The notes under the pieces: model-generated
What the model was told of the DNA's origin: nothing
Database searches by the model: none
The model's input: only the letters and a program-made list of their open reading frames with translations
Translations under genes and position numbers: made by a program
Shown here: positions 39,756-60,747 of the stretch, one piece after another
Layout of the letters: every line of letters starts with the position of its first letter
Numbering within the stretch: position 1 is the stretch's first letter
Assembly: GCA_018816245.1 (NCBI GenBank)
Contig: JAHIVW010000003.1
Span: forward strand, 389,150 to 453,149
Direction of reading: 5' to 3'
Origin: Nanobdellota archaeon
GTDB taxonomy: Archaea > Aenigmatarchaeota > Aenigmatarchaeia > QMZP01
Length of the DNA stretch: 64,000 bases

Positions 39756-41639
39756 TTACGGATTGTCTTGCCATTGCAGGTACGGATAGGTTTGCCCTTC
39801 AATAATATCCCATACAGAAACGAAATCCCATCCAGTGAACGTGGCCTGCTGGTGCATGGCTGCCGTGGGATGATTTTGGATGCCGCTACAGGTTCCTGAA
39901 CCACAATCCAGTAAGGGACCTGCGACGCTATTGTCCCAGTGATCGCCGACAAAGGTCCCTTTCTGTCGCTGTCCCACAAAGCCGCCAACATCGGTTGTTC
40001 CTGAGACTGTTGTTGCTGCGTACGTGTTGCGGATGGTTGCCGTTGTGCTTCCAAAACTCGGCGCCCGTACTTGTCCGGCAGCGCCGCCAACCTTGTTCGC
40101 GCCGGATACGTGGCCGAGAATGTAGACATTTTCAATCAAAGGATCGGACGTGCCATAGAATAACCCACTTCCCATTGTTCCAACAGCACCGCCAATGTAA
40201 TCTGTTCCGGTCACCGTTGCACTGGCAAAGGACGATTGCACAACACTCGCTCCGTAATAATCATCTCCATCAAGTCGTCCCACTAGACCGCCGACTGACT
40301 GGACCCCGTTTACTGATCCGGTGAAGGAAGATGCTGTAACCGTGCCCTGGTATTCTACATGTCCCACTAGACCGCCGACATTATTATTTCCTGAAATTGT
40401 TCCTGTTGCAGCGGCGTCCTCGACCAGCGGAGCGCCGCTATAGCCGGAGATCTCACCAACGATTCCGCCGACATGATTTCCTGTTCCGATCACGGTGGAA
40501 ACAGTTGCTGAAACGTCACGCAGAACACAGGGTCCGTCCATACTCCCTGCGAAGCCACCGATTTCTGTTGTGCCTTGGACAAGCTGTCCCGTGGCTGAGG
40601 AATCCGTGATCATTGCTCGATGATCCATTAAAGAAACAAAACCACCAAGTAGCCCGCCCGAACTGGTGACGGTCACTGCTGCTGATGAAAAGGTGATGCT
40701 TGTATCATCGGTCATCGAAGAGACGAAACCACCAAGACTACTCGACCCGGTAACAGAACCTGTAACCTTGGAATCGTCAATGGACGCGAAATCATGCAAC
40801 GAACCAGCAAACCCACCGGCAGTGTCCGCGGCGTTAACAGTAGCGGTTGCTTGCGAATCCGTTATCACTGTTTCTCCTTGCATTAACCCGACAAAGCCAC
40901 CAATATGGTCACCGGAGACTGTGTTGAAAACTATGCTTTCAATCGTTGTTCCTTCAATTCTGGATGATTCCTCCATACCTCCAACGATTCCCCCAACACT
41001 ACCGCTTCCTTGGACAGTGCCGCTGGCAAAAGAATCAATGATCATGCTGTTCCCGCCAATGGAACCGACAAGCCCGCCGACATCGTAATATCCAACAATA
41101 TTGTAGTCTTCAAGGTGCACGTTCACGAGCTTTGCGTTGTTGTCAATGATACCGAAGAGTCCTACAAAAGAGAGGGACGGATTTGCATACGTATAGTGAT
41201 TGATGATATGGCTATTGCCGTTATAAATACCAATAAAATGTGCGCCAGTCCCGCCAATGGGGGAAAGCGAGAAACCTGTTAGATTGATGTCGCAGGTCTG
41301 GATGTAATGCCCGGAGAGATTCGTGCGGACAGCGTCCAACTCCTGGGACGTGCAGACGTGCATATAGCCGGCCTCAAACCGGCAGGTTGCCGAACATCCG
41401 TCCCCGTTGTCAGTGTTACTGTCATCGCATTGTTCTGCTCCGCTGATGCGTCCATCACCACATACAACAATAGGAATAGGTGGTGAGGGGGAGACAAGAG
41501 GTGATAAAGGAGAGATTTTTGGTGCGACAACAAATTGTTGTCCAGCTAGTGTTTGTTGGTCAGCTATGAGGACAACGATAAGAATGAACGCAAAAACTGT
41601 TATGATCAGGATTCGGGTTTCCATGCGCATGCCTCTCAC
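39756..41639 (-). CDS. Secreted GLUG-repeat protein with an N-terminal Myxococcus-type cysteine-rich repeat
   Basis: An N-terminal anchor or signal is present. CGDGRISGAEQCDDSNTDNGDGCSATC is the Cys-rich repeat. More than 12 repeats of the (V/I/L)GG(F/L/I)VG type follow, at a period of about 25-30 aa. Confidence 0.7.
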   Translation of the reverse strand: MRGMRMETRILIITVFAFILIVVLIADQQTLAGQQFVVAPKISPLSPLVSPSPPIPIVVCGDGRISGAEQCDDSNTDNGDGCSATCRFEAGYMHVCTSQELDAVRTNLSGHYIQTCDINLTGFSLSPIGGTGAHFIGIYNGNSHIINHYTYANPSLSFVGLFGIIDNNAKLVNVHLEDYNIVGYYDVGGLVGSIGGNSMIIDSFASGTVQGSGSVGGIVGGMEESSRIEGTTIESIVFNTVSGDHIGGFVGLMQGETVITDSQATATVNAADTAGGFAGSLHDFASIDDSKVTGSVTGSSSLGGFVSSMTDDTSITFSSAAVTVTSSGGLLGGFVSLMDHRAMITDSSATGQLVQGTTEIGGFAGSMDGPCVLRDVSATVSTVIGTGNHVGGIVGEISGYSGAPLVEDAAATGTISGNNNVGGLVGHVEYQGTVTASSFTGSVNGVQSVGGLVGRLDGDDYYGASVVQSSFASATVTGTDYIGGAVGTMGSGLFYGTSDPLIENVYILGHVSGANKVGGAAGQVRAPSFGSTTATIRNTYAATTVSGTTDVGGFVGQRQKGTFVGDHWDNSVAGPLLDCGSGTCSGIQNHPTAAMHQQATFTGWDFVSVWDIIEGQTYPYLQWQDNP

Positions 41640-41669: not shown

Positions 41670-42116
41670 CTAAGGGTGGCAAAGGAGTGCCTCGGGATGG
41701 GTTGTAGTATTTGTGAACGGGTCATACCCTTGCCGGAGGAGGCTCTGCATCGGCCGGAAGAGCGGCTGCGGCAGGTTGTTCCAGTCGAACCAGCCGATCT
41801 CCGCTGTCCGGTCAGGTTCGGTGATGGTTGGTTCGCCGCGTGCCCAGTCTGCAAGCACACAGACTGTCAGGTAGTGAAGCTTGTGTTCGGGATGAACATC
41901 GTTGGTGACGGTTGCAAAGCGGATATTTTTGATTTCAATACCGCTTTCCTCTTTGGTTTCGCGCCGTGCACAGGCTTCAAGGGATTCGCCGAATTCCAGA
42001 TGGCCGCCGGGGGGACACCATGTGTCCTCGCCGTGTGCGCCGATTCGTTTCTGCATCAAGACATTATTGTTTTTGAGAATAATGACCCCGAGGCCGACTT
42101 TGGGGAGCTCTCTCAT
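41670..42116 (-). CDS. NUDIX hydrolase
   Basis: The Nudix box is GGHLEFGESLEACARRETKEESGIE. It overlaps the rtcB stop by 4 nt. Confidence 0.85.
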   Translation of the reverse strand: MRELPKVGLGVIILKNNNVLMQKRIGAHGEDTWCPPGGHLEFGESLEACARRETKEESGIEIKNIRFATVTNDVHPEHKLHYLTVCVLADWARGEPTITEPDRTAEIGWFDWNNLPQPLFRPMQSLLRQGYDPFTNTTTHPEALLCHP

Positions 42117-43564
42117 CCTTTCACATTCCCAATTGGTTTTAAATTCGCAACCAGCTTCGAGATTCCTGCCTGCTCGACAGACGCGACAACATCCGTGATG
42201 TTCTTGTACGCCATGCCGGCTTCTTCAGCAAGGCCCATGGCCGACGCGCTCTTCACATAGATGCCGCGCTTCTCCATGTCCTGCTGCAACTGGTCGCCTT
42301 GCACGAGCTTCTTTGCTTTGGTCCGCGACATAGTCCGCCCGGAGCCGTGACACGTGCTTCCGAACGTCAGCTCCATGGCTTTCTCGGTTCCCACAAGGAG
42401 TGCGGATCCGGTTTCCATGGACCCGCCGATGATGATCGGCTGCCCGGTTTTCTGGTATTGCTTTGTCAGTTCTGGATGGCCAGGACCGAATGCACGGGTT
42501 GATCCTTTGCGGTGAACCACAAGCTTTCGTTTCTTGCCGTCGACATCGTGCTCTTCGAGTTTTGCCATGTTGTGTGTGACGTCGTAAATCAAGTGAAGGC
42601 CAAGGGCTTCAGGAGATTGTTTGAAGATGCTGGAAAAGCCTTCGCGGATGCGATGGGTGACCACTTGCCGGTTCGCGTACGCGAAGTTAGCGGCGCAGGC
42701 CATTGCTTTGTAGTAGGTTTGGCCTTCGTCTGACTGGAACGGGACACATGCAAGTTCCCGGTCAGGAACAGTGATGTGGTAGCGGCGCATGATCTCGTCG
42801 AAGTTGCGCACCGAGTCCGTGCAGATCTGGTGGCCGATGCCGCGGGATCCCGTGTGCACCATGACCATGACCTGGTTTGGATCGGTGATCCCAAAGGCTG
42901 CGGCAAGGTCCTTGTCGAAGATTTCTTTTGCAACTTGCAGTTCCAGGTAGTGGTTGCCACTTCCCAGTGTACCGAGCTGGTTCTTGCCGCGTTTGTGCGC
43001 CTTGTCAGAAACCGTTGCCGGATCAGCCCACGGGATTTTCCCGTTGCTTTCGGTATGTTCAACATCGTCCTGCCAGCCGTAGCCGTTGTCAACGCACCAC
43101 TGCGTTCCATCTGTCAGGATGTCGTCGAGTTGTGCTGTATTGAGTCGTGCAAATCCTTTGACGCCGACGCCTGCGGGGACGGTCCTGAAAAAGGTGTTGA
43201 TGAGATCTTTGATTTTCGGTTTGACGTCGGTGTAGGTGAGGTTGGTTCGGATCAGGCGCATGCCACAATTGATGTCGAAGCCGACCCCCCCAGGAGAAAT
43301 AATCCCTTCCTTCACATCGAACGCCGCGACGCCGCCGATGGGGAAGCCATAACCCCAGTGGCCGTCAGGCATGCAGTAGGCATGCTTCACGATGCCGGGG
43401 AGACAGGCCACGTTCGTGGTCTGGTCGAAGACCCCGTGATCCATGTCCTTCAGGATCGTCGGCGAGGCCACGAAGCGGGCGGGGACGTGCATGCCCTGCT
43501 TGTAGGATGTGGGCAGCTCGTACAGGGCGTTCCCGATGCGCTGGAGTTGCTTGGGAATAACCAT
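42113..43564 (-). CDS. rtcB: RNA-splicing ligase RtcB
   Basis: A 483-aa protein. The metal and GMP-His motifs are present: PDGHWGYG, GGVGFDINCG, GSGNHY, HTGSRG and STCHGSGR. Confidence 0.96.
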   Translation of the reverse strand: MVIPKQLQRIGNALYELPTSYKQGMHVPARFVASPTILKDMDHGVFDQTTNVACLPGIVKHAYCMPDGHWGYGFPIGGVAAFDVKEGIISPGGVGFDINCGMRLIRTNLTYTDVKPKIKDLINTFFRTVPAGVGVKGFARLNTAQLDDILTDGTQWCVDNGYGWQDDVEHTESNGKIPWADPATVSDKAHKRGKNQLGTLGSGNHYLELQVAKEIFDKDLAAAFGITDPNQVMVMVHTGSRGIGHQICTDSVRNFDEIMRRYHITVPDRELACVPFQSDEGQTYYKAMACAANFAYANRQVVTHRIREGFSSIFKQSPEALGLHLIYDVTHNMAKLEEHDVDGKKRKLVVHRKGSTRAFGPGHPELTKQYQKTGQPIIIGGSMETGSALLVGTEKAMELTFGSTCHGSGRTMSRTKAKKLVQGDQLQQDMEKRGIYVKSASAMGLAEEAGMAYKNITDVVASVEQAGISKLVANLKPIGNVKG

Positions 43565-43595
43565 GGGAAGTGTTACGTTGTGTTGTTTATATGGA

Positions 43596-43616
43596 TATAT
43601 AACAGTGTTATATATA
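43596..43616. promoter_or_regulatory. Palindromic TATA-containing motif TATATAACAGTGTTATATATA, 32-52 nt upstream of rtcB
   Basis: Seen in the DNA. The core TATAACAGTGTTATA is identical to the one at 60727..60741. An imperfect hairpin follows at 43625..43659. Confidence 0.5.
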
Positions 43617-43666
43617 AGAAAGCCGAGTGGGCGATGATCCTTTCGGAAAACGCCCGCTCGACATTG

Positions 43667-44272
43667 TCACTGAGCGCGGAAATCAATGTCCGGTCCTGTC
43701 TCGACTTCCACATCAGTCATCTTCCCAACGAGGATCGATCCCTTCCCCAACGCCTTGATGGTTCCGGTCTCTATGTTCGCCAAGACGTCGACAGCGACGT
43801 GGCATCTTGGACCACTGAGAAAAAGGAACTGGTCAAGATGCCCGCTCTCGACATGGAGCGTTGCCCTGTCTCCTCCTGGGGACACTGCAAGAATCTTGGC
43901 GGTAAGGAGTTTCGCGTCGATGTCAGCAGAGCAAATGATGGTCGCCTGTCCTGCTACTGCTTCGAGCACCCGCAACTTGATAGGGAAACAACCATTTGAA
44001 ATGTGCAGGGAGGACGTTGGCACGTCCACCATGACATCACTACAGTTGTTGACGCAGAGCTGGATCGTTCGTGGTACCCGGATGTTGACTTCCCGCACAT
44101 AACGATCAACGGAGGTTCCGTTGAAGAACAGGAGATCATTTCCGAACACGACGGCTTCGTTTTGAACGTCGAGGACCTCTTGATCGAGGTCGTTGATCCC
44201 CCTCACCACAAGTTCTCTCCCACGGGTGAGAGAAATCTTGTGTGAAAAATTGTATAGCAAAACGGTCTGCAT
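43667..44272 (-). CDS. Hypothetical beta-rich protein (201 aa)
   Basis: The sequence shows alternating hydrophobic/polar short-strand periodicity (VMVDVPTSSLHISNG.., ATLHVESGHL.., HVAVDVLANIETGT..). GGAGAGAGT lies before the ATG. No confident family was assigned. Confidence 0.5.
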   Translation of the reverse strand: MQTVLLYNFSHKISLTRGRELVVRGINDLDQEVLDVQNEAVVFGNDLLFFNGTSVDRYVREVNIRVPRTIQLCVNNCSDVMVDVPTSSLHISNGCFPIKLRVLEAVAGQATIICSADIDAKLLTAKILAVSPGGDRATLHVESGHLDQFLFLSGPRCHVAVDVLANIETGTIKALGKGSILVGKMTDVEVETGPDIDFRAQ

Positions 44273-44298
44273 ACTCTCTCCATGGAGTTGGTGGTTTG

Positions 44299-44334
44299 TA
44301 AAAATCCGGGCGGGCAGCGTCGGTTGCCCGCCCG
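44299..44334 (-). terminator. Intrinsic-terminator-like GC hairpin plus T-run between the 156-aa and 201-aa orphan genes
   Basis: On the minus strand, CGGGCGGGCA-N8-TGCCCGCCCG forms a perfect 10-bp stem and is followed by GATTTTTA. Confidence 0.5.
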
Positions 44335-44364
44335 TGGCTTGAATGAGGATCCCAGCACCCTCGG

Positions 44365-44835
44365 TTACCTTTGAGAACGGACCCGGTCGTGCAGACCTTG
44401 AAGATCGTCTCTCGTCGCCTTCATAACGGGGACGATCTCATCCTCGAATCGTTGCATGCAGGTCGCCGGCCCGATCAGCTTCCCGGCCCGATCGTGAAAC
44501 TCTTCTCCCTCGTTGAGCAACACGAGGGTGAAACGCCGCGCGAGCCGGTGGAAGAGCTCGTCGGGAGTGAGTTCTTCATTCTGCACCAGACTTGCGATAA
44601 CCTCATCAACCGCTCGCTGGAAGAGCTCGACAAAGCGAGCATAGTGACTGAAATCCAGCTCCGCCAGGCTGAATGCCAGACGCATTTGGTGTGCGATGGC
44701 AATCCTCCTGAAGGCATATGCACGCGGAATGTCGAAGGGTTTCCGGAACAGATCAAGGAAATTGCACCAGAACACGCCCAGCACGATTCCGAGATCTTCA
44801 GTTGTTGGAGGATGAGTAGTTGTTGTCTTCATCAT
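44365..44835 (-). CDS. Hypothetical protein (156 aa), predicted helical
   Basis: The start MMKTTTTH at 44835 overlaps the upstream stop by 4 nt (ATGA). No motif was recognised. Confidence 0.5.
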   Translation of the reverse strand: MMKTTTTHPPTTEDLGIVLGVFWCNFLDLFRKPFDIPRAYAFRRIAIAHQMRLAFSLAELDFSHYARFVELFQRAVDEVIASLVQNEELTPDELFHRLARRFTLVLLNEGEEFHDRAGKLIGPATCMQRFEDEIVPVMKATRDDLQGLHDRVRSQR

Positions 44836-45284
44836 CCTGCCCCCGTCAGGAGTCCATGAACATCGTCGAAGAGCTTCGCCCCCTCTTCGATAAGCTCTTT
44901 GAGCTCCTTCAAAGCGGCAGTGGTTCCGATCGAATGGAACTGAAGGCGAATCAATCCTTCTTTTCCACCCAAAATCCACGAAACCGGCGTTTGTTCAAAA
45001 GCCTTGTCGAAGGATACCTGGAGGAATCCTATCCAGTCATGATCAGGGTTTGGAGCATCGGATACGAGCTCCTCCTTGACGATATACTTGAGATAGGGTT
45101 CTGCCACCTGTTCGCCGGTTACCTCCGTCACCCCAGCGAACCGAAGACCGAGGTCAAAGACCTTCACAAGTTCCTTGACAAAGCCTTCGTGTTCATTGTC
45201 GATGAATGCTCCCATGACAAGTCCCCAGGCGGACCGGAGGAGGCCGAAGATGAGCTTCGTTTGGTGCATTGTCAGTTTCTGCAT
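44832..45284 (-). CDS. Hypothetical protein (150 aa), possible paralog of 62203..62640 and of the C-terminal half of 53552..54055
   Basis: AAGGAG lies 6 nt upstream of the ATG. Weak colinear similarity is described in the findings. Confidence 0.55.
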   Translation of the reverse strand: MQKLTMHQTKLIFGLLRSAWGLVMGAFIDNEHEGFVKELVKVFDLGLRFAGVTEVTGEQVAEPYLKYIVKEELVSDAPNPDHDWIGFLQVSFDKAFEQTPVSWILGGKEGLIRLQFHSIGTTAALKELKELIEEGAKLFDDVHGLLTGAG

Positions 45285-45448
45285 GTTGTCTCCTTTCTCC
45301 CTCCCGGGAGAGTGAGTTTGTAGAAAACATGGTTCCCTTCCCGGCGCCGTTCGACGAGTCCTTTCTTGGACAGTCTCGCCAGGAATTCGCCGAAGAACTG
45401 GGCAACCCGTCGCTCGTCATAGTCACAGAACCTTTTCTCAGTCGTCAT
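45272..45448 (-). CDS. Small winged-helix (ArsR-like) DNA-binding protein (58 aa)
   Basis: LARLSKKGLVERRREGNHVFYKLT looks like a recognition helix plus wing. GGGAGG lies 7 nt upstream of the ATG at 45448. The ORF-track start at 45502 is an alternative. Confidence 0.5.
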   Translation of the reverse strand: MTTEKRFCDYDERRVAQFFGEFLARLSKKGLVERRREGNHVFYKLTLPGGRKETTCRN

Positions 45449-45510
45449 TGCAAAACCTCCCATGAATTCAACGCAAGATCGCCAAAGACAGTCTTGAGAC
45501 AAGAAATTTC

Positions 45511-45560
45511 GTCCACCAGCCGCGCTCCCGCTCCCTCATGCGAATCTTGTTTGTTCCCAC
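45511..45560 (-). promoter_or_regulatory. Conserved leader element, copy A (plus strand: GTCCACCAG..CGCTCCCGCTCCCTCAtgcGAATCTTGTTTGTTCCCAC)
   Basis: It shares the ordered blocks CTCCCTCA, GAATCTT, GTTTG and CCCAC with 62715..62765. The CTCCCTCA block lies 83 nt upstream of the first ATG here and 89 nt upstream in copy B. Confidence 0.45.
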
Positions 45561-45697
45561 GAGCCGTGCTCAGAGGGGACAAGATTCAGCCTGTGGCAGG
45601 ACACACCAACGAGGCGTGTCAACGGAGGGATGGTGGTGATGATCGTGATTTGTCACTGTCTGAAGATGAAAAATAGATACGAAACTATATAAACATT

Positions 45698-46114
45698 TCA
45701 GATGTCCACGGTCACCTGGGCCTCGTAGCCGTCCTTGGTCTTCGAAATCCCGAACTGGTGCATGGTGATCGCCTTCACGTCGTTCCGGAGCTTTTGAGTC
45801 TTGGGGTCGATCTTCCCGCCCCGGACCGTGGCCGTGACCCCGGTCGGCGTCACCTGAACCGCAAATTCCCTGAAGAGGAGCCCCTCGGTGTCCTTGAGGA
45901 AGATGAGTTCGGAAAGGAAGTCGTAGAGGAGGTGGTCAGGGTCAGTGCCACGGATAGTGACTATTTTCTTCACCGTTGCCGGGATGGTCGAGAGGTCTGC
46001 CATGGAGGCGAACGTGGCCTCGGCAGCAGCCGCAAAGAGCTCGTCGAGCGTCCTGCCCCGGGCGATGAAGGCGATGTCCGCTATCGAGGCGTCCTCGAGG
46101 AACTCGTAGGGCAT
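45698..46114 (-). CDS. Archease (RtcB activator)
   Basis: A 138-aa protein. MPYEFLEDASIADIAF.A.G.TLEELF, LYDFLSELIFL and the C-terminal KAITMHQF pattern are typical of archease. Confidence 0.9.
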   Translation of the reverse strand: MPYEFLEDASIADIAFIARGRTLDELFAAAAEATFASMADLSTIPATVKKIVTIRGTDPDHLLYDFLSELIFLKDTEGLLFREFAVQVTPTGVTATVRGGKIDPKTQKLRNDVKAITMHQFGISKTKDGYEAQVTVDI

Positions 46115-46144
46115 GGCTAGTGTAGATCAGGGGATTTAAAATGA

Positions 46145-46163
46145 TAAATAACAATGTTATATA
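46145..46163. promoter_or_regulatory. Palindromic TATA-containing motif TAAATAACAATGTTATATA, 31-49 nt upstream of archease
   Basis: Seen in the DNA. It has the same architecture as the rtcB and DASS sites. A hairpin follows at 46172..46214. Confidence 0.45.
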
Positions 46164-46165
46164 CC

Positions 46166-46214
46166 AGAAAAAGAGAGCGACCGGCACAACAGTTGCACCG
46201 ATAAATCGCTCTCT
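46166..46214 (-). terminator. Terminator-like hairpin plus T-run at the end of the surface-protein operon
   Basis: On the minus strand, AGAGAGCGA-N25-TCGCTCTCT forms a 9-bp stem and is followed by TTTTTCTGG. Confidence 0.45.
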
Positions 46215-46646: not shown

Positions 46647-47963
46647 CTACTTCCGTTTCGTTGCCCAGAACCCACCGAGGCCAATAACAATCAGCACCAA
46701 CAGGATAATACCGACAATCCCGCCAAGGAGCAGCGGATCCCAGCCTGCTGGCACAGCAGCGCACTGGTTCCCGTCACAACCGTTCGGACAGGTCTCGATT
46801 ACCGTCCAGCTCATGCCGTCCGTGGCACACTGCTGTCGCGATCCTGAAGAACATTGGACCGCTCCTGGTGTGCACACAGTCGTGGCGGCGGCTGCTTGTT
46901 CCCCGACAACTGCGAAGGTTGAGAAACCCGGAGTTTCTGCTTCGAATTGGTAGCCGGTTGCAGTCTCTCCGGTGAAGGTTGTTGCCAGGGTCTGCCATTC
47001 TCCACCGCTGTACCGGAGGAGGGTAATGGCGTCTTTGTCAATATTACTTTCCATGATCCAGAGCTTGGTCACTTCGAAGTCGATGCTCGCATGTTTGAGC
47101 ATGTTTTCAATGTTGGTGAGATCGATTGTGATATACTTGAACACGAGCTGCGACACGGTCGCACCGCTTGGTGTCACCGCCGTTGCAGGCGGCGCTGTTC
47201 CCACGGTTGTGGGCAAGCCTGATTGTGTCGAAACGCTGATCATAACATTGGATGCTGTTCCGGTTGTTTCAATCCTGATGCCTTTCATAAACAGGCCTGC
47301 GGTGTCAAAGACGATCTTTTGTGGAGTGCCAGCAGAGATCTTGTTCACTGTTTTGCTGGCAGTAACCGGCTGTTCCACGGGTGCAGGTTCTTCCTCCTCT
47401 TCTTCGCTTGAGGAGGTGGTTCCGCCGGAGCCTGTGCTGCCGCCTGTTCCGCCACCCGTGCCACCACCAGTGGAGGTGCAGGTTCCAATGGTGCCAGCGA
47501 CATTACAGTCATACCCTGATGTGGTGCAGGCGGTGTTGCAGCAGTAGCCGTCAACGCAATATGTTGAGTTACACGATCCTCCATATGTACAGGCAACGCC
47601 GTTGGCATACGGGTTGACGGTAAGGTTGAGTGACGAAGAATTCCCAATCACGGTCCAGAGTTGTGGTGAGTTATTGGTCGGATAGGCAGGGAGATCGAAT
47701 ACTTTAAATGTAATGTTCGCACCAGCACCAGCAGCCACGTGAATCAGGTACCAACCTAAAGTAAGCTTGCCAAGGGTGGCATTTGAGTGTGCTGTTGAAC
47801 TGCCGTTGATGAAAGAAAAGATCAGGGCTCCGTCTGGACTGGCATTTCCTGTCATTGTAATACCGCCGAACCAGTCAGCAACGTTTGTTGTCTGCGCGGT
47901 AACCTGTGGCATGAGCAAGGCGGCGGCGATAATCATTCCCGCCAATATCCGAACGTGGTTCAT
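46647..47963 (-). CDS. Secreted PGF-pre-PGF domain surface protein with a C-terminal anchor
   Basis: A signal peptide is present, then a Cys-rich region, a GGGTGGGTGGSTGSGGTT linker and an acidic run. TKLWIMESNIDKDAITLLRYSGGEWQTLATT...YQFEAETPGFSTFAVVG is the hallmark end of the PGF-pre-PGF domain. The C-terminus is PAGWDP, then a TM helix, then KRK. Confidence 0.7.
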   Translation of the reverse strand: MNHVRILAGMIIAAALLMPQVTAQTTNVADWFGGITMTGNASPDGALIFSFINGSSTAHSNATLGKLTLGWYLIHVAAGAGANITFKVFDLPAYPTNNSPQLWTVIGNSSSLNLTVNPYANGVACTYGGSCNSTYCVDGYCCNTACTTSGYDCNVAGTIGTCTSTGGGTGGGTGGSTGSGGTTSSSEEEEEEPAPVEQPVTASKTVNKISAGTPQKIVFDTAGLFMKGIRIETTGTASNVMISVSTQSGLPTTVGTAPPATAVTPSGATVSQLVFKYITIDLTNIENMLKHASIDFEVTKLWIMESNIDKDAITLLRYSGGEWQTLATTFTGETATGYQFEAETPGFSTFAVVGEQAAAATTVCTPGAVQCSSGSRQQCATDGMSWTVIETCPNGCDGNQCAAVPAGWDPLLLGGIVGIILLVLIVIGLGGFWATKRK

Positions 47964-47967
47964 AGCA

Positions 47968-50900
47968 TCAGACGATCTGGATCGTATCTGTGACGTTTGC
48001 GTTGATCCAGTAGGGGAAGGCGCTTCCCGAGATTGTGGTGAGGTCGTTCACTGCTCGACCTGGCACAAAGGTTTTCCACGTGTTGCTTCCTCCTTCGGCT
48101 GTCGTATTGTAGTGGTGGACTGCAGTGAAGTTACCCCAGATGCTTGCAAGCACATTCTGCACGGTCTTGTTGCCGCTTACTGAGGAGGCGGAGATCGTGA
48201 AGGATATAACTTCGAAGCGGTTGGAGAAGTTTGCATTCGTATCAAGCACACCACACTGCGGGAACTCGATTGCCCAGTCAGAGTAGTTGGCAAAGCCGAT
48301 GTTCGTGATCCCAACAACACCATTTCCAGCACGATCGGTGATCCCGTAAGCAAACATGTCAAGCAAGCCGTTCTCGCCGGGGTACGGGCTACCACATCCC
48401 GTCTTCACCCCAAGAACTTCGAATTTCTCATGGGCTGCATCGGTCATGTTCAGCACAAGGACTGAGGTATTCGTGCTGTTGAGGATAGCAACAATGACGG
48501 TATTCGGGTTGTTAGCACTTACATTGAATCCATTGAATCCATTTTCAAAGCTGCTTTGGTTATCCGTTATCGTGACGCTATCATAGTTGAATGCTGCCGT
48601 GTTAATGGTTTCATTGAACCGGAAGGTCAGCGTCTTCTCCATGAAGCTGTAGTTCCACGTAACGAGGCCAGGGGCCACGGTGTCAGTCGTCACGTACCAG
48701 CGTGACGTGTTCATAACGATGTTCCCGGCAGAATCGTTCATGTATATGGTGAAGTTGATCGGGATGTTCGGCTGGCTGGTGAAGTTGTAGCTACATGACT
48801 TGTTCCCTGCGTCAGGATCGCTCGTGAAGTTCCCAGAGCCCGTCCCGTTCTTCCAGTCAAACACGCACTGGAATGGATTGGTCTCTGTGTATGACATGTT
48901 CACGAATACATAGGACACGTTTGTGTAGGAGTTGTTCAGCTCCGGGGTGATGAGATTGACATCGGCCGGTGGTGTGGTGTCAGTCAACGCGAAGAATACC
49001 TGGTATGAACTATTACTATTGCCCGCGGAGTCCGAGACAAAGAAGGTGTAATTGACCGGCCCGGAGGAGACGGCTGTGAGGTTCACCGAACAACCAGAGA
49101 AGTTCTGCAGGGTGTACTTTGTGTGCGTCATCGTCACGTTCGTGAGGCCGCTTGAGTTTCCGAACTCAACAACACAACTCGTGCTGTTCATGTTGGTCTC
49201 GTTTATCGTGTAGTTAATGAAAACATAGGTCCCGTTGAGCGTCGAGTCGTTTTGGACGGCTGTGGAGTTCCAGATCGCCGTGGGCACGACCGTGTCACGC
49301 GTCACCGTAAGCATCTTGGATGAGTTGCTGTTGCCAGCGACGTCAGTCACGAAGAGAGTGAGGTTCCAGATTCCGTCACTGAGGCCGGTGAAATTGTAAT
49401 TACATTCCAGACTCTCGTCGCCTCCGACATAATCTGCTGTGTAGTTGGCAACTGAGTCATTGCTGAACTGGAACGTGCAGCTGGTCGCGTTCACGTGGGT
49501 TTCGTTGACCGTGAAGTTGGCAGTGATGTAGTCCTTGATGATGTACGAACCGTTCAGTTCTTCTGTATCGCTGCTATTGTCGATCTTGTTCGGGACAAGG
49601 GTATCGATCGTAAAGTTGATGAATGGTGTCACGTTGCTGTTCTCAGCAGAGTCGTTGAAGAACAGCTTCGCTGACCAGGAGGCATTCGTACCGATGTTGT
49701 TCTGGGCGAGCAATCCAATGCCGCAGCTCATGCCAGCACCAGTTGCTGTCCGGGTCAGAGTTCCCGTGTAGTTCACTGCAGTCCCGTTGTTGAACTCGAT
49801 GAGACACTGGTCAGGATTGGTCTCGTTGATCGTGTAGTTGAAGTTGATGCTTGTGATCGAATTGTTGCTGCTTGTGCCAAGGGTACCGTTGGACTGGTTC
49901 AACTGATTCGGCTCAAGGATATCGACGATGTACGTGATCAGTTGTGACTTGTTCTGATTGCCAGCGACGTCAGTCACCCAGAGGGTGGCATTAATGATGC
50001 CTTCGTTGGCAGTGGTGAAGTTGTAGGTGCAGTTGAGCGAGGAGCCGCCGCCCTCCAGGGCTGCGGTGTAGTTGGCAGCGCTGCCGTTGTGAGTGATCTC
50101 GATGAGACAGCTGGTCGCGTTGATGTGCGACTCGTTTACGGTGAAGTTAAAGGTGACTCCGGGACCGCCGGTGTAGGAAGCATTAATATAGGTGCCGTTA
50201 AAGAGGGAACCGCCACTGATGTCGATGTTGTTCGGAACCAAGGAGTCGACTGTGAAATTCTCGAGGACAGATTGATTCGAGTTCCCTGCTGTATCATTCA
50301 CAAAGACCTTGTGTGACCATGAGGCATTCGTGAGGAGGTTGTTCTGAACCGTAAGGGTGATGCCACAGGACGTGTTCAGGCCAGAGCCGCTTCGGGTTCC
50401 TGAATAGTTCGTTACGGTCCCGTTATTGAACTCGACCACACAAACATCAGGATTCGTCTCATTGTACGTGTAATTGAAGGTCACGGTCGTTGACGTGACG
50501 TTGCTGTCAAGCGTTGGAGTGGGAACATTAGTTACCAACAAACCTGGAGCAGAGATTTCTGCCGTCGTTGTCATCGGGGAAGCCTCTGATCCATTGTTCG
50601 CAAGGAGGCTTCCAAGGTCCGTCATGTTGAAGAAGAATTGCAACACTTCAGTGTCACTGAGAATTGCAGAAAGATCTTTCGTCGTATTACAATCATAGAT
50701 TCGCACTCCTGAAGCTTTTTCATAACATGAAAGTGTTGCAGAAGTGTAGCTGCCCGCGCCTGCTGGTTTATAATAGACTGTCACGTTGGAACTTGGATCA
50801 ATGTTCTCTTCATTGACGGTAACCTCAAAGAGAATATTAGAAAGACCACCGAGAAGTGAACCCGGAACCGGACTGGTCTCATTCAAGGTAGCGTTTGTCG

Positions 50901-53028
50901 AGTCGCGAGTCACTGTGATGAGCTTGGAGCTGTTTTGGTTGCCGGCAACATCAGTCACCCAGAGGGTAGCGTTGAGGATACTATCATTAGCATTAGTGAA
51001 GTTGTACGTACAGTTCAGACTCTCGCCACCGCCCATAAAGGCTGCCGTGTAATTCGCGAGGCTGCCATTATGGGCAATCTGCACGACGCAGCTGGTCGCG
51101 TTGATGTGTGATTCGTTTACTGTGAAGTTGAAAGAAACATAATTGTTTTGCGTGAATGATCCGTTCAGGTTTGCCATTCCGGAGCTATTGTCGATCTGGC
51201 GCGGCTCACTGGTGTCAATTGTAAAGTTCACTAATGGTGTGGAGTTGCTGTTGCCCGCGGAGTCGTTGAAGAATAGCTTCGCTGACCAGCTGATTCCAAT
51301 GGAATCGTTCCCCGGAAGGAGGTCGGCGAGACAGCTCATGCCGACACCAGTCGATGTGTTGGTCAGGATTCCGGTGTAGTTCGTTACAGTCCCGTTGTTG
51401 AACTCGATCAGACAGCTGTGTGGATTCGTCTCGTTTATGGTGTAGTTGAACTTTAGGCTCGTCACTGAGATGTTTGTATTGGCGAAGGTTCCGGCAGACG
51501 GGGTCCCGTTGGATGCATTCAGGTTGTTTGGGACAAGGGTATCGATCGTGTATGTGATAAGCCTCGAGGAGTTGCTGTTGCCAGCGACGTCAGTCACGAA
51601 GAATGTTGTGTTAATGATGCTGTCAGTGGGACTCGCGAAGAGATAGGTACAATTCAAGGTGGCACCGCCACTTTTTGGGACTCCAGTATAGTTCGCCGCA
51701 GTGCCGTTGTGGGTGATCTGGAACGTGCAGCTGGTCGCGTTGATGTGTGATTCGTTCGCAGTGAAGTTGAAGTCGATGCCATCACCAAGCGCAGTTGAGT
51801 TGAAGTACGTGCCATTGCTATAGGCCCCGGTGCTGATGCCGATCTGGAACGCTTCAACGACATCCTGCGTGAAATTATACGTTGGACTAATGTTGCTGTT
51901 CCCAGCAGAGTCGTTCACGAAGAAGAAGTAGGACCAGCTGATTCCAATGGAATCGTTCGGAAGGATCAGAGCAGCAGTACAGTGGGTTCCGGTTCCTGAA
52001 CCGATCCTGGACATTGAGAAATTGGTAAGTGTGCCGTTGTTCAGGGTCACGATGCAACTATTCGGGTTGGTATCATTCCAACTCACATTGAACGTTGGTG
52101 TACCGACCGAGCTATTGGAATCGGGGATCGGCGATCCTGTTGTATTGATAACATTATTCGGGAGGGTTTGATCAATAGTGAACGAATTCGGACTGGTTTC
52201 AGTTCCGTTTGTACCGAGCAGACTCACCGTGTCAGTTGTGTTCCAGAAGTACTGGATCACCTCGCCGTCGTCCGCGAACCACTCCATGTCGTTAAGTGTC
52301 AAATTACAGAGCTTGACTGCAGCCGTTCCTTCGCACAGTGTGGTCACATTGCGCTGGTACGTTCCAGTGCCGCTCTTACGCCAGTAAAAAGTGACGTTGC
52401 CTTTCCCGAAGCCGTTGGCATTGGTACTGATGTTAATATTTTGGTCAGTCAAGATGACCGAAACCAAGGGTGTCAGGTCGTTCGTGAACCCGTTCGTATT
52501 CGGAGAGGTCTCGTTGATCACCGGTGCCTGCGAGTCGTTCTTGTTTACGTTGTGGACCGTGCCATTCGACGGACCAAGTGATGCATTGATATCGAGGAGG
52601 ACGAAGACGGTAACAGCTTCGGTACCGTTTCCTGCTGTAGTACTGACATTGAAGTAGAACGTCGCACTTGTGTTCGTTGTTTCGTTATTGAGAATACCAA
52701 TCGCGGTGAGGTTAGAGAACGTGACGTTTGCGGTATTGTTGGTGACGAACGTGATAGCGGAGGTCATGTTTGATCCGTTTGTTCCTTCAATAAAAGTGAA
52801 ATTTGCAGGAAGCTGGAATGTAATATTAGAAATATTGTGACTACCGTTCGCGTTGACAACTGTGAACACGAGTTGAGCGACTGAGGATCCGGATTCGACG
52901 GTATTCGAAGTTGTCGTGTAGCTGTACGCAAACGCAGGAAGAACGTAGTACGCGGTGAGGCCGATAGAGAGAGCTACCAGCAGGAGAACTACCGAAAATT
53001 TGGAAATACCTTTAAATGGCCCCTTCAT
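47968..53028 (-). CDS. Giant secreted surface (S-layer/adhesin-like) protein with extreme N-glycosylation sequon density and modular Ig-like repeats
   Basis: MKGPFKGISKFSVVLLLVALSIGLTAYYVLPAFA is a good signal peptide from the start at 53028; the ORF track gives 53121. N-x-S/T occurs about every 8-10 residues in the stretches I counted. D(T/S)xxP domain junctions and VTDVAGN / NDSAGNSN motifs recur. The stop is 4 nt from the next gene's start. Confidence 0.8.
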   Translation of the reverse strand: MKGPFKGISKFSVVLLLVALSIGLTAYYVLPAFAYSYTTTSNTVESGSSVAQLVFTVVNANGSHNISNITFQLPANFTFIEGTNGSNMTSAITFVTNNTANVTFSNLTAIGILNNETTNTSATFYFNVSTTAGNGTEAVTVFVLLDINASLGPSNGTVHNVNKNDSQAPVINETSPNTNGFTNDLTPLVSVILTDQNINISTNANGFGKGNVTFYWRKSGTGTYQRNVTTLCEGTAAVKLCNLTLNDMEWFADDGEVIQYFWNTTDTVSLLGTNGTETSPNSFTIDQTLPNNVINTTGSPIPDSNSSVGTPTFNVSWNDTNPNSCIVTLNNGTLTNFSMSRIGSGTGTHCTAALILPNDSIGISWSYFFFVNDSAGNSNISPTYNFTQDVVEAFQIGISTGAYSNGTYFNSTALGDGIDFNFTANESHINATSCTFQITHNGTAANYTGVPKSGGATLNCTYLFASPTDSIINTTFFVTDVAGNSNSSRLITYTIDTLVPNNLNASNGTPSAGTFANTNISVTSLKFNYTINETNPHSCLIEFNNGTVTNYTGILTNTSTGVGMSCLADLLPGNDSIGISWSAKLFFNDSAGNSNSTPLVNFTIDTSEPRQIDNSSGMANLNGSFTQNNYVSFNFTVNESHINATSCVVQIAHNGSLANYTAAFMGGGESLNCTYNFTNANDSILNATLWVTDVAGNQNSSKLITVTRDSTNATLNETSPVPGSLLGGLSNILFEVTVNEENIDPSSNVTVYYKPAGAGSYTSATLSCYEKASGVRIYDCNTTKDLSAILSDTEVLQFFFNMTDLGSLLANNGSEASPMTTTAEISAPGLLVTNVPTPTLDSNVTSTTVTFNYTYNETNPDVCVVEFNNGTVTNYSGTRSGSGLNTSCGITLTVQNNLLTNASWSHKVFVNDTAGNSNQSVLENFTVDSLVPNNIDISGGSLFNGTYINASYTGGPGVTFNFTVNESHINATSCLIEITHNGSAANYTAALEGGGSSLNCTYNFTTANEGIINATLWVTDVAGNQNKSQLITYIVDILEPNQLNQSNGTLGTSSNNSITSINFNYTINETNPDQCLIEFNNGTAVNYTGTLTRTATGAGMSCGIGLLAQNNIGTNASWSAKLFFNDSAENSNVTPFINFTIDTLVPNKIDNSSDTEELNGSYIIKDYITANFTVNETHVNATSCTFQFSNDSVANYTADYVGGDESLECNYNFTGLSDGIWNLTLFVTDVAGNSNSSKMLTVTRDTVVPTAIWNSTAVQNDSTLNGTYVFINYTINETNMNSTSCVVEFGNSSGLTNVTMTHTKYTLQNFSGCSVNLTAVSSGPVNYTFFVSDSAGNSNSSYQVFFALTDTTPPADVNLITPELNNSYTNVSYVFVNMSYTETNPFQCVFDWKNGTGSGNFTSDPDAGNKSCSYNFTSQPNIPINFTIYMNDSAGNIVMNTSRWYVTTDTVAPGLVTWNYSFMEKTLTFRFNETINTAAFNYDSVTITDNQSSFENGFNGFNVSANNPNTVIVAILNSTNTSVLVLNMTDAAHEKFEVLGVKTGCGSPYPGENGLLDMFAYGITDRAGNGVVGITNIGFANYSDWAIEFPQCGVLDTNANFSNRFEVISFTISASSVSGNKTVQNVLASIWGNFTAVHHYNTTAEGGSNTWKTFVPGRAVNDLTTISGSAFPYWINANVTDTIQIV
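49100..52100 (-). repeat. Alternating A/B module repeats inside the giant surface-protein gene
   Basis: Near-identical DNA blocks recur. GCCAGCGACGTCAGTCAC occurs near 49335, 49961 and 51585, with a variant near 50945. GCTGGTCGCGTTGATGTG occurs near 50111, 51091 and 51731. Boundaries are approximate. Confidence 0.6.
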
Positions 53029-53168
53029 TAACCCCACGCTTGGTAGGAGTTGGTTTCCTGAGTTTATAAAGATTACCAATGTCGTCCCCACATGGTGTGG
53101 GAAGGTTGTGTATTTGGTCAAAAACCTATTTCTATATATTATTCTAGTGAAAGGGTATTAGGAACAAT

Positions 53169-53285
53169 GCGTCGGTAGTCTAGCGGTAGGACCCAGATCC
53201 TTGGAAACTCAGAGCGCAGTGCGCAATGACCAAGAAGGGAAAGCCTTCCAAGCCTGTGACCCGGGTTCGATTCCCGGTCGACGCA
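53169..53285 (+). tRNA. tRNA-Gly (anticodon TCC) with a 46-nt intron (53197..53242) between positions 29 and 30 of the anticodon stem
   Basis: Exons splice to GCGTCGG-TA-GTCT-AGCGGTA-GGAC-C-CAG|GC-CTTCCAA-GCCTG-TGAC-CCGGG-TTCGATT-CCCGG-TCGACGC-A. The 71-nt product closely resembles typical archaeal tRNA-Gly(UCC). The stem CAGGC/GCCTG forms only after the intron is removed. Confidence 0.85.
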
Positions 53286-53471: not shown

Positions 53472-53486
53472 TATAACGCTGTTATA
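53472..53486. promoter_or_regulatory. Palindromic motif TATAACGCTGTTATA next to a 12-bp-stem hairpin (53492..53546)
   Basis: Seen in the DNA. It is the fourth copy of the palindrome-plus-hairpin module. Here no gene start lies within 50 nt. Confidence 0.35.
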
Positions 53487-53551
53487 TTAATCCAAACAAA
53501 CGGCACGTCATGTCAGTGAGATGTGACACACGCACCGTTCGTTTGGGCACC

Positions 53552-54055
53552 TTACATGCCGAAGCTCTCGAGTTGCTGAAACTCCTTGAGCTTCTTACCA
53601 GCAGTCTCGATGACCTGGTCCACGAACTTGGCCTCTCCTTCGTCGGCGATGGCGAGCTTCTCCAGACCACTCCGCAGCGCGAACTCGAGGGCCTTCTTGT
53701 GGACGATCCCCTCGTTGAGGGGTTTGAGGGCATCGGCGAGTATACCAAAGGCCCTTCCCAAGATCAACCGGATCATCGGTGTCCCTTCACAGGGAACCGG
53801 TTTCCGGTCCTTGGTACTGTTGCAGTTCAGGAGGAGTTGCCAGTCCGTCGTCTTCCCCAGAAGTCGGCCCTCGTTGATCTGCTCGCGGAGGAACATGATT
53901 CGCGCACAGACATGCGCGAGGATATTCAGGAAAACGGGCCTGAATTCGTCCTCAAGGGCCGTTGCCTTGACCGTGATCGGATCAGGCGCTTCCGTGACTT
54001 CCGTGATGAGTTCTGTCTCCTCAATTGGAGAAAGAGGCTCCACATGCTCGTTCAT
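53552..54055 (-). CDS. Hypothetical protein (167 aa)
   Basis: AAGGAG lies 7 nt upstream of the ATG at 54055; the ORF track gives 54097. The opposite-strand ORF 53510..54175 looks like a shadow frame. Its C-terminal half is weakly similar to the N-terminal half of 44832..45284. Confidence 0.5.
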   Translation of the reverse strand: MNEHVEPLSPIEETELITEVTEAPDPITVKATALEDEFRPVFLNILAHVCARIMFLREQINEGRLLGKTTDWQLLLNCNSTKDRKPVPCEGTPMIRLILGRAFGILADALKPLNEGIVHKKALEFALRSGLEKLAIADEGEAKFVDQVIETAGKKLKEFQQLESFGM

Positions 54056-54252
54056 GAGTTCTCCTTGCCCACAGGGCGTTTCGCGATGCCTTTCCATGAT
54101 TGTGAACCAAAGACAACGAACGTCGTTATCTTTTCAGAACAAGAAACCTGCCACTCCTACTGTCATTCCTGCTGAGGCGTTACCGATCAGGCAACGGAAG
54201 ACAGATGGAGCAGTGATAAGAGCATGAACACTAACACGAGGTAGGGAAGAAA

Positions 54253-59355: not shown

Positions 59356-60693
59356 TTATATCCAGTACAGCATCGCGAGTGACGCGAGGACGAACAGGCT
59401 GATGGTTGCAAGAATGGCACCGGCCTTCGCCATGTCTTTCACGCGGATGTAGCCGGATGAATAGGCAATCGCCGACGGCGGGGTGCCAACCGGAACAATG
59501 AAGTCAAGTGACACGCCGATGGCAGCGAGCATAACGACAGTCGTCACGTCCAGACCGGTCGCGTGGGCAAGCGGGATCATGAGCGGGATCATCACCGCTG
59601 CTGCGGCTGTGTTGCTGGCAACAACTGTCAAGAGGATGGCAAAGAATCCAATCCCGACAAAGGCGAGGAAGAGCGGCTGGTTCGCGATGACGAGTTCCAG
59701 GAAGGAGGCAATGAATGCATCGAGTCCTGATGCCTGGATGGCTAATCCGAGTGAGAGGCCACCGCCAATCAGGATCAAGGTCGGCCAGTGGATCTTGGTG
59801 AAGTCCTCAGTGTTGAGCAGACCGAACACATACAACAGAATGATCGGAACAAGCGACACCGTGCTGCTGGCCATGCCATGCACGCGCGTGGTCAGCCACA
59901 ATGCAACCGTGACCGCGAAGATGAGGAGCACTTGTTTCTGTGGTTTGCTGAGCCCGCGCTTGAAGCGGATGGTTTTGAGTGTTTTGATTTCAGACCGGAA
60001 TATTCGCGTCACCACCACCCAGGCAACCGGAATAAACACAATCACAAACGGGAGACCGTACCACATCCAGTCAAGGAAGTCAAACGCAATCCCTGCTTCG
60101 TTCAGGAATTTCGCAGCAATGACATTCGGGGTGCTGCCGATCAAGGTCCCGATGCCGCCGATGGTTGCGGCAAACGCAATACCAAGTACCAACGCCTTGC
60201 CGTAATTAGATTTCAACGGCTTGATCTTGTTTTTCGTTAACACAACCAACCCGATTGGTAACAGGATTGCGGTTGCTGCAGTGTTGCTCATCCACATGGA
60301 AAGGAACGCGGCGATCACCATCATAGCGAACAGGAAGGTGTTCGGAGCGTGCCCGATCTTATCAAGGAAGGTGTACGCAATGTATTCGTCGAGTTTGTGC
60401 TTTTGGAGCGCTCGTGCGAGGACGAAACCGCCGAGCAACAGGACAATGACCGGATCGAAGAACGGGGTGAAGGTTTCCTCGGGCGTCATGCCTGCAATCG
60501 TGATCAAGAGGAACGCGATGACAATGGCTGTTGCATGGAGCGGCAGGGCCTCGGTGAACCAGAGGAACATGGCAACGATCATGATTGCCAGGACGAGTTG
60601 CGCCTGCGGTTGGAGGGGAAGCGGCGCGAGCGCAATGATGATCCCGACGATCGCGGAGAGGAGAATGAAGAGGTGCTGGCGGGTCATTTGCAA
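59356..60693 (-). CDS. DASS/SLC13-family anion:sodium symporter
   Basis: A 445-aa polytopic protein. Duplicated SNTA(A/T)A hairpin motifs are present (MSNTAATAILLPI and ASNTAAAAVMIPL). Confidence 0.85.
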   Translation of the reverse strand: MQMTRQHLFILLSAIVGIIIALAPLPLQPQAQLVLAIMIVAMFLWFTEALPLHATAIVIAFLLITIAGMTPEETFTPFFDPVIVLLLGGFVLARALQKHKLDEYIAYTFLDKIGHAPNTFLFAMMVIAAFLSMWMSNTAATAILLPIGLVVLTKNKIKPLKSNYGKALVLGIAFAATIGGIGTLIGSTPNVIAAKFLNEAGIAFDFLDWMWYGLPFVIVFIPVAWVVVTRIFRSEIKTLKTIRFKRGLSKPQKQVLLIFAVTVALWLTTRVHGMASSTVSLVPIILLYVFGLLNTEDFTKIHWPTLILIGGGLSLGLAIQASGLDAFIASFLELVIANQPLFLAFVGIGFFAILLTVVASNTAAAAVMIPLMIPLAHATGLDVTTVVMLAAIGVSLDFIVPVGTPPSAIAYSSGYIRVKDMAKAGAILATISLFVLASLAMLYWI

Positions 60694-60720: not shown

Positions 60721-60747
60721 GTCATGTATAACAGTGTTATATATGAC
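60721..60747. promoter_or_regulatory. 27-bp near-perfect palindrome GTCATGTATAACAGTGTTATATATGAC, 28-54 nt upstream of the DASS transporter
   Basis: Seen in the DNA. The core is identical to the rtcB site. A long hairpin follows at 60752..60792 (ACGAACGG...CCGTTCGT). Confidence 0.5.

Follow-up and report, generated by a model that had tools for sequence, protein, structure and literature searches.

An orphan four-gene cassette between the archease and rtcB genes of an uncultured archaeon

Four open reading frames (ORFs) lie between the genes for archease and the RNA ligase RtcB in the 64-kb stretch of archaeal DNA analyzed here (“the window,” to whose first letter all positions refer). On balance, and with little more than even confidence, we read them as a self-contained orphan cassette that was inserted or arose between two normally adjacent genes, that provides for its own transcription and that stands outside the RNA-ligation machinery. 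The archaeon is poorly sampled, and the cassette is most likely no more than an ordinary insertion specific to its lineage.

Both flanking genes are readily recognized. Archease (138 aa; 45698..46114, minus strand) is a full-length match to Pfam PF01951 (E 5e-37, 127.6 bits) and RtcB (483 aa; 42113..43564, minus strand) matches Pfam PF01139 (E 4e-173, 576.9 bits); beyond them, a NUDIX hydrolase gene (41670..42116, minus strand; PF00293, E 6e-22) starts within a 4-nt overlap with the rtcB stop. The spacing of 2,133 nt agrees with a first-pass annotation of this DNA, which had put the pair ~2.1 kb apart on one strand with ORFs of 58, 150, 156, and 201 aa in between. The same four ORFs, all on the minus strand and covering 79% of the interval, were called independently by a gene caller run on the source contig.

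The first three genes are tightly packed. Gene 1 (45272..45448, minus strand) encodes a 58-aa basic protein (pI 9.9) and carries an SD sequence, GGAGGT, 6 nt 5′ of its ATG. Gene 2 (44832..45284, minus strand), for an acidic, predicted alpha-helical protein of 150 aa, overlaps gene 1 by 13 nt and has AGGAG 5 nt 5′ of its start. Gene 3 (44365..44835, minus strand; 156 aa, predicted alpha-helical) meets gene 2 in a 4-nt ATGA overlap, and gene 4 (43667..44272, minus strand) encodes an acidic, predicted all-beta protein of 201 aa. These overlaps are as first described, while the SD sequences then credited to all four genes are clear for genes 1 and 2, reduced to an SD-like GGAG(AG) for gene 4 and absent from gene 3. 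SDs are rare in the window, where a match of at least 5 nt was found for 3 of the 58 genes, in keeping with the accompanying remark that the housekeeping genes checked (aEF-2, pcm) lack them.

The interval also holds its own candidate transcription signals. A TATA box, TTTATATA (45686..45693, minus strand), stands 5 nt past the archease stop, just where it had been noted, and would serve as the cassette promoter; the motif occurs three times in the 64 kb against 0.22 copies expected. The leader that follows (45449..45685, minus strand) shows no coding signal, with all frames negative and GC flat over codon positions. Within it lies a 45-codon upstream ORF (uORF; 45445-45582) that has no family match and ends in an ATGA shared with the start of gene 1. 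We rejected the leader as a riboswitch or ncRNA, its fold giving z = -1.1 and Rfam no match. Past gene 3, the hairpin and T-run reported earlier are indeed present (44299..44334, minus strand): a stem at 44334-44307 of 10 bp, nine of them G-C (-23.5 kcal/mol, z = -4.4), is followed by TTTTT and would act as a terminator or attenuator. The T-run (TTTTTACA), 32 nt ahead of the gene 4 ATG, could also be a weak TATA box for that gene. Directly past the gene 4 stop, a second strong hairpin (43622..43662, minus strand; -25.1 kcal/mol, z = -4.2) runs into CTTTCTT and is the predicted distal boundary of the cassette.

Compared with length-matched windows of real genes, codon usage in genes 2 and 4 is host-like (59th and 20th percentile, respectively), and that of genes 1 and 3 falls in the lowest 3%. 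Gene 3 also lacks strand asymmetry, its strand being assigned by gene arrangement. Plus-strand ORFs of 135-167 aa span the interval as well; for three of these, codon scores favor the minus strand or non-coding sequence, and the one opposite gene 3 scores about equal to gene 3 but lacks both an ATG start and signals. The four products show no paralogy among themselves (z <1.5) and have no paralogs elsewhere in the window.

Gene 1 had been assigned to the winged-helix (wHTH) proteins, and this stands for one part of the domain but not for the whole. Its residues ~19-50, the sole matching part, fit positions 46-70 of 77 in an ArsR profile (NCBIfam NF033788) at 22.2 bits, where the cut-off is 55; the PaaX, TrmB, and PadR matches in Pfam are likewise all under cut-off, and PADLOC returns sub-threshold wHTH-type matches only (Csa3, E 0.002). 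In the PDB, residues 19-50 align with residues 65-96 of the ArsR-family structure 6o8k (32 residues, E 0.002), an alignment that takes in the recognition helix and the beta-wing. Gene 1 thus shares the recognition-helix end and wing with ArsR/SmtB (and PadR/PaaX/TrmB) regulators, but it lacks their N-terminal helices—only ~18 residues precede the match, vs. ~45-64 in a full domain—and the C-terminal dimerization helix, and no full-domain ArsR/SmtB match above a curated cut-off was found in NCBIfam or Pfam. Judged by these alignments, its product appears to be a wHTH fragment or minimal derivative rather than a demonstrable family member. We also considered the uORF and gene 1 as one frameshifted ArsR gene. 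The lengths fit (joined, they give 103 aa with the wing at 64-95, where a 111-aa ArsR protein has it at 65-96), but no profile match enters the uORF and scores drop slightly, which leaves the idea unsupported.

For genes 2–4, the earlier statement that they fit no family was borne out by profile, sequence and structure searches alike. No homolog was found among ~15 billion proteins overall. A word-indexed search of 5.8 billion clustered proteins gave only self matches, and phmmer, run exhaustively against 1.84 billion representatives with the three products joined as one query, gave no true homolog. Two extra phmmer matches (P0004 and P0005) are long repeat proteins whose scores sum many weak stretches. 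No family match was obtained in Pfam, NCBIfam, PADLOC, or PHROGs, no usable match in the PDB, and no relatives in plasmids, phages, or IMG/VR; in the PDB, gene 4 did match de novo designed TIM barrels over 29 residues (E 3e-5), which we rejected as a composition artifact. AlphaFold2 without an alignment predicted gene 4 as all strands (pLDDT 47) and a gene 2 + gene 3 fusion as helical (pLDDT 41). Single-sequence models at this confidence (pLDDT 41-47) we regard as unusable, and Foldseek against the PDB and BFVD returned nothing at E <=0.001 (TM <=0.38).

With a wHTH-like, two predicted helical and one predicted beta-rich product, the cassette invites comparison with PadR-HAAS-Toastrack envelope-stress cassettes, which combine a wHTH protein, a helical protein and a beta-rich protein. 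Searches for DUF1700/HAAS and for DUF4097, DUF2154, or DUF2807 gave no Pfam match even at E up to 1, and no transmembrane segment was found. Gene 4, which we considered as a solenoid or Toastrack protein, has no internal periodicity and no profile match; a signal peptide is likewise absent.

Archease and RtcB form a known “tRNA splicing operon” (Desai et al., 2014; PMC3973293), and the locus here resembles it in that both genes are intact, on the same strand and accompanied in the window by an intron-containing tRNA as a substrate. It differs in that the pair stands 2.1 kb apart around a four-ORF cassette, with a palindromic element for each gene, and is neither adjacent nor, by the TATA box and two hairpins in the gap, apparently co-transcribed. 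Lying between two partners of one pathway, the cassette may still be functionally linked to them.

Among 160 other RtcB loci, all of them distant relatives, the cassette is absent from every one. Archease lies upstream of rtcB on the same strand in 65 of these loci, and in 51 of the 65 the gap is at most 143 nt. Extra genes stand between the pair in 14 of the 65 loci and in 28 of the 45 with archease downstream; examples are two DDE transposases, LAGLIDADG and HNH endonucleases, a ZIP transporter and a CobW GTPase. Interrupted pairs in other lineages thus resemble ours in holding extra genes in the same interval, but theirs belong to recognizable families, whereas the cassette products have neither relatives nor a mobility hallmark.

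A shared element marks the two flanking genes instead of the cassette. A palindromic, promoter- or operator-like sequence precedes the archease ATG by 32 nt (TATAACATTGTTATT; 46147..46161, minus strand) and the rtcB ATG by 33 nt (TATAACACTGTTATA; 43598..43612, minus strand), each copy within a 36-nt repeat, and the two repeats are 81% identical. The palindrome, TATAACAnTGTTATA, has four copies in the window against 0.26 expected by chance; the remaining two precede a DASS-family anion symporter and a 221-aa ORF without a family, and the cassette promoter has none. A separate copy of this element in front of each gene would allow archease and rtcB to continue to function as a pair. Common to archease, rtcB and two other genes, the palindrome is the more usable by-product of this analysis, since it offers a concrete candidate for an operator or regulon that can be tested in an archaeon not yet cultured.

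From these parts we propose the following working of the cassette. Transcription would start ~25 nt downstream of the TATA box and run through a leader of ~215 nt. Gene 1 would be translated off its strong SD, and genes 2 and 3 by coupling via the 13-nt and ATGA overlaps. The hairpin and T5 past gene 3 would end most transcripts, leaving gene 4 to be expressed from read-through or from the weak T-run promoter, and the second hairpin would close the cassette unit ahead of the rtcB promoter. Gene 1's small basic protein, with its recognition helix and wing, is most plausibly a nucleic-acid binder that controls the promoter of the cassette itself, and the two coupled helical proteins of genes 2 and 3 probably act together, perhaps as a complex.

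As to how the cassette came to lie here, the earlier suggestion of an unrelated inserted cassette fits better than its counterpart in that 51 of 65 pairs elsewhere abut and split pairs hold unrelated, often selfish genes; what it lacks is a mark of mobility. No integrase or transposase occurs within 10 kb on either side, and the sole flanking repeat is the promoter palindrome, also found at two other loci, rather than an att-type repeat. Cassette GC (0.51-0.57) is like that of the surroundings, with no compositional anomaly, and there is no viral or plasmid relative, so that an integrated mobile element or provirus is not indicated by any of these features. An insertion may nonetheless be old, and some or all of its ORFs non-functional: gene 1 a decayed 3′ ArsR remnant, gene 3 (perhaps others) decaying or spurious, and the whole a gene graveyard. 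We consider this unlikely. The retention in gene 1 of the recognition-helix end and wing only, the uORF that stops in ATGA at its start and, once joined, places the wing as ArsR does, and the codon usage of genes 1 and 3 all suit such decay; the lack of homologs, hence of any sign of selection, and the low AlphaFold confidence of the modelled products have the same tenor. Yet genes 2 and 4 score as host genes, and four intact ORFs persist with overlaps, two SDs and two strong hairpins kept. Joining the uORF to gene 1, moreover, neither lengthens nor betters any wHTH match, and for an orphan, low confidence in a single-sequence model is to be expected and carries little information.

Readings that give the cassette a role in RNA repair, or in defense, fare less well. 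As an archease-RtcB accessory, the cassette would be a source of lineage-specific cofactors, of proteins that target substrates or of a regulator, e.g., the gene 1 protein binding the shared palindrome. It sits exactly between both pathway partners and on their strand, with the operator-like palindrome on both flanks; the window encodes an intron-containing tRNA and the ligase is therefore needed; and the ZIP transporter and CobW metallochaperone-type GTPase found elsewhere, plausibly tied to the metal dependence of RtcB, indicate that the interval can hold functional partners. We nevertheless hold this to be quite improbable. The cassette is missing from all 160 other loci, a TATA box and two hairpins of its own set it apart and it has no palindrome, the palindrome also precedes the anion symporter and the 221-aa ORF and so is not specific to RNA repair, and no product matches an RNA-binding or RNA-processing family in Pfam or NCBIfam. 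An accessory role in RNA ligation or repair, as first proposed, accordingly finds no support beyond position. To our knowledge, archaeal tRNA splicing and RNA repair have no regulators or cofactors besides archease, and an accessory cassette would, if real, add new components to both; the evidence points elsewhere. We give very little credence to the more specific form in which the gene 1 protein works on the archease/rtcB palindrome or the products of genes 2–4 bind RtcB, archease or RNA substrates as lineage-specific partners in a deep-branching, unsampled euryarchaeon, which would tie three new protein families to RNA repair. Very improbable, too, is a toxin-antitoxin or defense-like module of genes 1 and 2, perhaps along with gene 3, e.g., a degenerate hicAB-like pair in which a HicA-like RNase would come ahead of its partner, with RNA cleavage and repair as the link to RtcB. 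Its likeness to hicAB lies in order and size, a small basic first gene (58 aa) tightly coupled to a larger, overlapping second (150 aa), and in weak matches of gene 1 to HicA_toxin (PF07927; E 0.001-0.003, 18-19 bits) and to a PHROG that carries the annotation “toxin” (E 0.03). The HicA match, however, falls short of the 27-bit cut-off and is partial, covering profile positions 3-36/37 of 58 and missing the C-terminal helix of the dsRBD-like domain, and the same residues fit wHTH wings better (ArsR, 22 bits; PDB, E 0.002). Gene 2 offers no HicB-like partner and matches no other antitoxin (Pfam, NCBIfam, PADLOC, PDB). PADLOC, empty for genes 2–4 and sub-threshold for gene 1, reports no anti-phage system, and the earlier labels “defence” and “regulatory” are thus not supported.

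In the reading we prefer, that of a self-contained cassette outside RNA ligation, these are taxonomically restricted genes in a permissive gap of a conserved gene pair. Isolation of the lineage accounts for part of their orphan status, and the cassette illustrates how far such status depends on the sampling of a lineage; other proteins encoded in the window (147, 221, and 306 aa) likewise match no family. The database copies of the cassette proteins, all from a single population, do not differ from one another, and the closest RtcB elsewhere, in a scan of GTDB representatives and JGI metagenomes, shares 67-68% identity.

The first-pass annotation placed four genes in about 2.1 kb between archease and rtcB on one strand, and this observation is largely correct. 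On the minus strand, archease (45698–46114; PF01951, 127.6 bits) is separated from rtcB (42113–43564; PF01139, 576.9 bits) by 2,133 nt, ~79% of which is covered by four minus-strand ORFs: g1 (45272–45448; 58 aa), g2 (44832–45284; 150 aa), g3 (44365–44835; 156 aa) and g4 (43667–44272; 201 aa). The identical ORFs were called by the gene caller of the source metagenome-assembled contig (ENA ERZ27247128), and the overlaps reported among the first three are present (13 nt for g1/g2; 4 nt, ATGA, for g2/g3). Downstream of rtcB lies a NUDIX hydrolase gene (41670–42116, minus strand); its start shares 4 nt with the rtcB stop, coupling the two translationally—an unusual pairing, since of the first 80 other RtcB loci just two showed a NUDIX match close by. 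The locus is surrounded by minus-strand genes for large secreted or surface proteins, namely a PGF-pre-PGF domain protein (46647–47963), a ~1,700-aa protein with many N-glycosylation sequons (47968–53121) and a DUF4215/Glug-repeat protein (39756–41639). The neighboring PGF-pre-PGF domain makes a euryarchaeon with an archaeosortase system the probable host.

The cassette has its own promoter-like and terminator-like boundaries, set by a TATA box and hairpins. The TATA box, TTTATATA (45686–45693, minus strand; 3 copies in 64 kb vs. 0.22 expected), lies where it had been noted, 5 nt past the archease stop. Between it and the g1 ATG, the leader lacks coding signal, has no Rfam match and folds unexceptionally (z = -1.1). 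It contains a 45-codon upstream ORF (uORF; 45445–45582, minus strand) that starts with TTG and ends in a TGA overlapping the g1 start codon (ATGA); neither coding signal nor a profile match was found for this uORF. The strong hairpin and T-run said to end the first three genes were recovered on the minus strand after g3 (10 bp, 9 of them G–C, then TTTTT; -23.5 kcal/mol, z = -4.4), and a second hairpin of similar strength (43662–43622, minus strand; -25.1 kcal/mol, z = -4.2) directly follows the g4 stop. The claim that all four genes carry GGAGG-type Shine–Dalgarno (SD) sequences, unlike the housekeeping genes checked (aEF-2 and pcm), held for g1 (GGAGGT, spacing 6 nt) and g2 (AGGAG, spacing 5 nt) only; g4 has just GGAG(AG) upstream, and no SD was found upstream of g3. 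Such motifs are indeed rare (matches of at least 5 nt to GGAGGTGA at 3–12 nt spacing in 3 of 58 window ORFs), and most window genes begin no more than ~35 nt from a TATA-like element, pointing to translation that is mainly leaderless or from short leaders.

Coding evidence differs among the four ORFs. We built a codon log-odds model from 24 confident window genes and ranked each ORF against real-gene windows of matched length, with the sampled gene excluded. In this comparison g2 ranks at the 59th percentile, g4 at the 20th, and g1 and g3 are in the bottom 3%; for g3 the score on its own strand does not exceed the antisense score, a strand difference smaller than in any of the 960 real-gene windows. 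Its minus-strand placement is based on the ATGA coupling, the terminator 3′ of g3 and an opposite ORF that has no ATG. Cassette GC (0.51–0.57) resembles the surroundings.

The products of g2, g3 and g4 lack relatives, in agreement with the earlier failure to assign any gene but g1 to a family. In word-indexed searches, 5.8 billion clustered proteins yielded the queries alone, and exhaustive phmmer against 1.84 billion representatives (~15 billion proteins) found no relatives, two extra hits being repeat-protein artefacts. Nor were there matches in Pfam, NCBIfam, PADLOC, PHROGs or PDB sequences, or among plasmids, phages and IMG/VR. Copies in NCBI, JGI, ENA, Logan and GEM are identical bar alternative start calls and so stem from one population. 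AlphaFold2, run without an alignment and informative for secondary structure only, predicted g4 as all-beta (pLDDT 47) and g2 and g3 as all-alpha (pLDDT 41); fold searches on these models are meaningless. The four cassette products show no transmembrane segments and no mutual resemblance. Other window proteins (147, 221 and 306 aa) likewise lack a family match; orphan proteins are common in the window, a reflection of the lineage's isolation.

The g1 product is basic (pI 9.9) and had been called a winged-helix protein. It matches only the recognition-helix end and beta-wing of such families, always below cut-off (PaaX, TrmB and PadR; ArsR NF033788 at 22 bits vs. 55, profile positions 46–70 of 77), and among solved structures the best match is to an ArsR-family protein (residues 65–96 of 111, E 0.002). 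The ~18 residues before the match leave too little room for the rest of the domain.

We compared 160 RtcB loci, found with RtcB as the query in GTDB species representatives and JGI metagenomes; the set includes a few duplicates between the collections. The best RtcB identity was 67–68%, so the scanned sets hold no close relative of the source organism, and coding resembling g1–g4 was absent from all 160 (tblastn, E up to 10, noise only). Archease was present in 115; in 65 of the loci it precedes rtcB on the rtcB strand (gap ≤143 nt in 51, 345–5,985 nt in 14), and in 45 it follows rtcB on that strand (17 close). The common state is adjacency, in agreement with the described archease–RtcB operon (PMC3973293). 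Split pairs elsewhere hold unrelated genes or unassigned ORFs, which marks the interval as a tolerated landing site. Selfish elements occupy it in other genomes: two DDE transposase copies (L062; 2 × 307 aa), LAGLIDADG homing endonucleases (L030, 282 aa; L031, 281 aa) and an HNH endonuclease (L011; 87 aa). A ZIP transporter of ~249 aa recurs in DPANN-type loci (L005, L010, L002 and others; rtcB–ZIP–archease) and a CobW-family GTPase of ~294 aa in bacteria (L079, L081, L144 and others; rtcB–CobW–archease); these metal-handling genes may relate to the metal dependence of RtcB.

On balance we lean toward a self-contained orphan cassette in a permissive gap. Transcription would be driven by its own TATA box and translation of g1–g3 would be coupled, with the hairpin and T5 after g3 serving as a putative attenuator ahead of g4 and the second hairpin sitting before the presumed rtcB promoter. 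The g1 product would likely be a nucleic-acid-binding autoregulator, and those of g2 and g3 probably act together. That the cassette has lost its function in part or altogether seems unlikely; g1 would then be what is left of an ArsR gene, and g3 would be doubtful. The uORF joined to g1 makes 103 aa, about as long as an ArsR protein, but joining does not lengthen the winged-helix matches. The more exciting proposal of a true RNA-ligation accessory is unsupported and improbable; the cassette is absent from the compared loci. Slightly less probable still is a hicAB-like toxin–antitoxin or defence module; a HicA_toxin match to g1 falls on the residues of the winged-helix match and is weaker (18–19 bits; cut-off 27). 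There is no evidence of cassette mobility: the 10 kb to each side contain neither an integrase nor a transposase, no flanking repeats occur besides a promoter element, and viral or plasmid relatives were not found.

That element is a 36-nt repeat, 81% identical between its copies before rtcB (43586–43621) and archease (46135–46170). Its core, the palindrome TATAACAnTGTTATA, lies 32–33 nt upstream of both ATGs (43598–43612 and 46147–46161), and further copies precede an unassigned 221-aa ORF (53510–54175) by 23 nt (53472–53486) and a DASS-family anion symporter gene (59356–60693) by 28 nt (60727–60741). Eight strand-matches occur in the window vs. 0.26 expected by chance; the palindrome is preceded by TTTcT, and the element stands 23–33 nt upstream of the four start codons. 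The palindrome is a candidate for an operator that overlaps the BRE/TATA region, or for a distinctive promoter class yielding near-leaderless mRNAs. As it precedes each gene, archease and rtcB can be co-regulated without co-transcription; the cassette promoter lacks it, and the cassette is therefore apparently under separate regulation. An intron-containing tRNA gene (53169–53285, plus strand; Rfam tRNA, 41.4 bits, 117 nt), missed by ARAGORN, carries a ~46-nt insertion in the anticodon-loop region and is thus a ligation substrate of RtcB/archease, whose genes lie 7–10 kb away.
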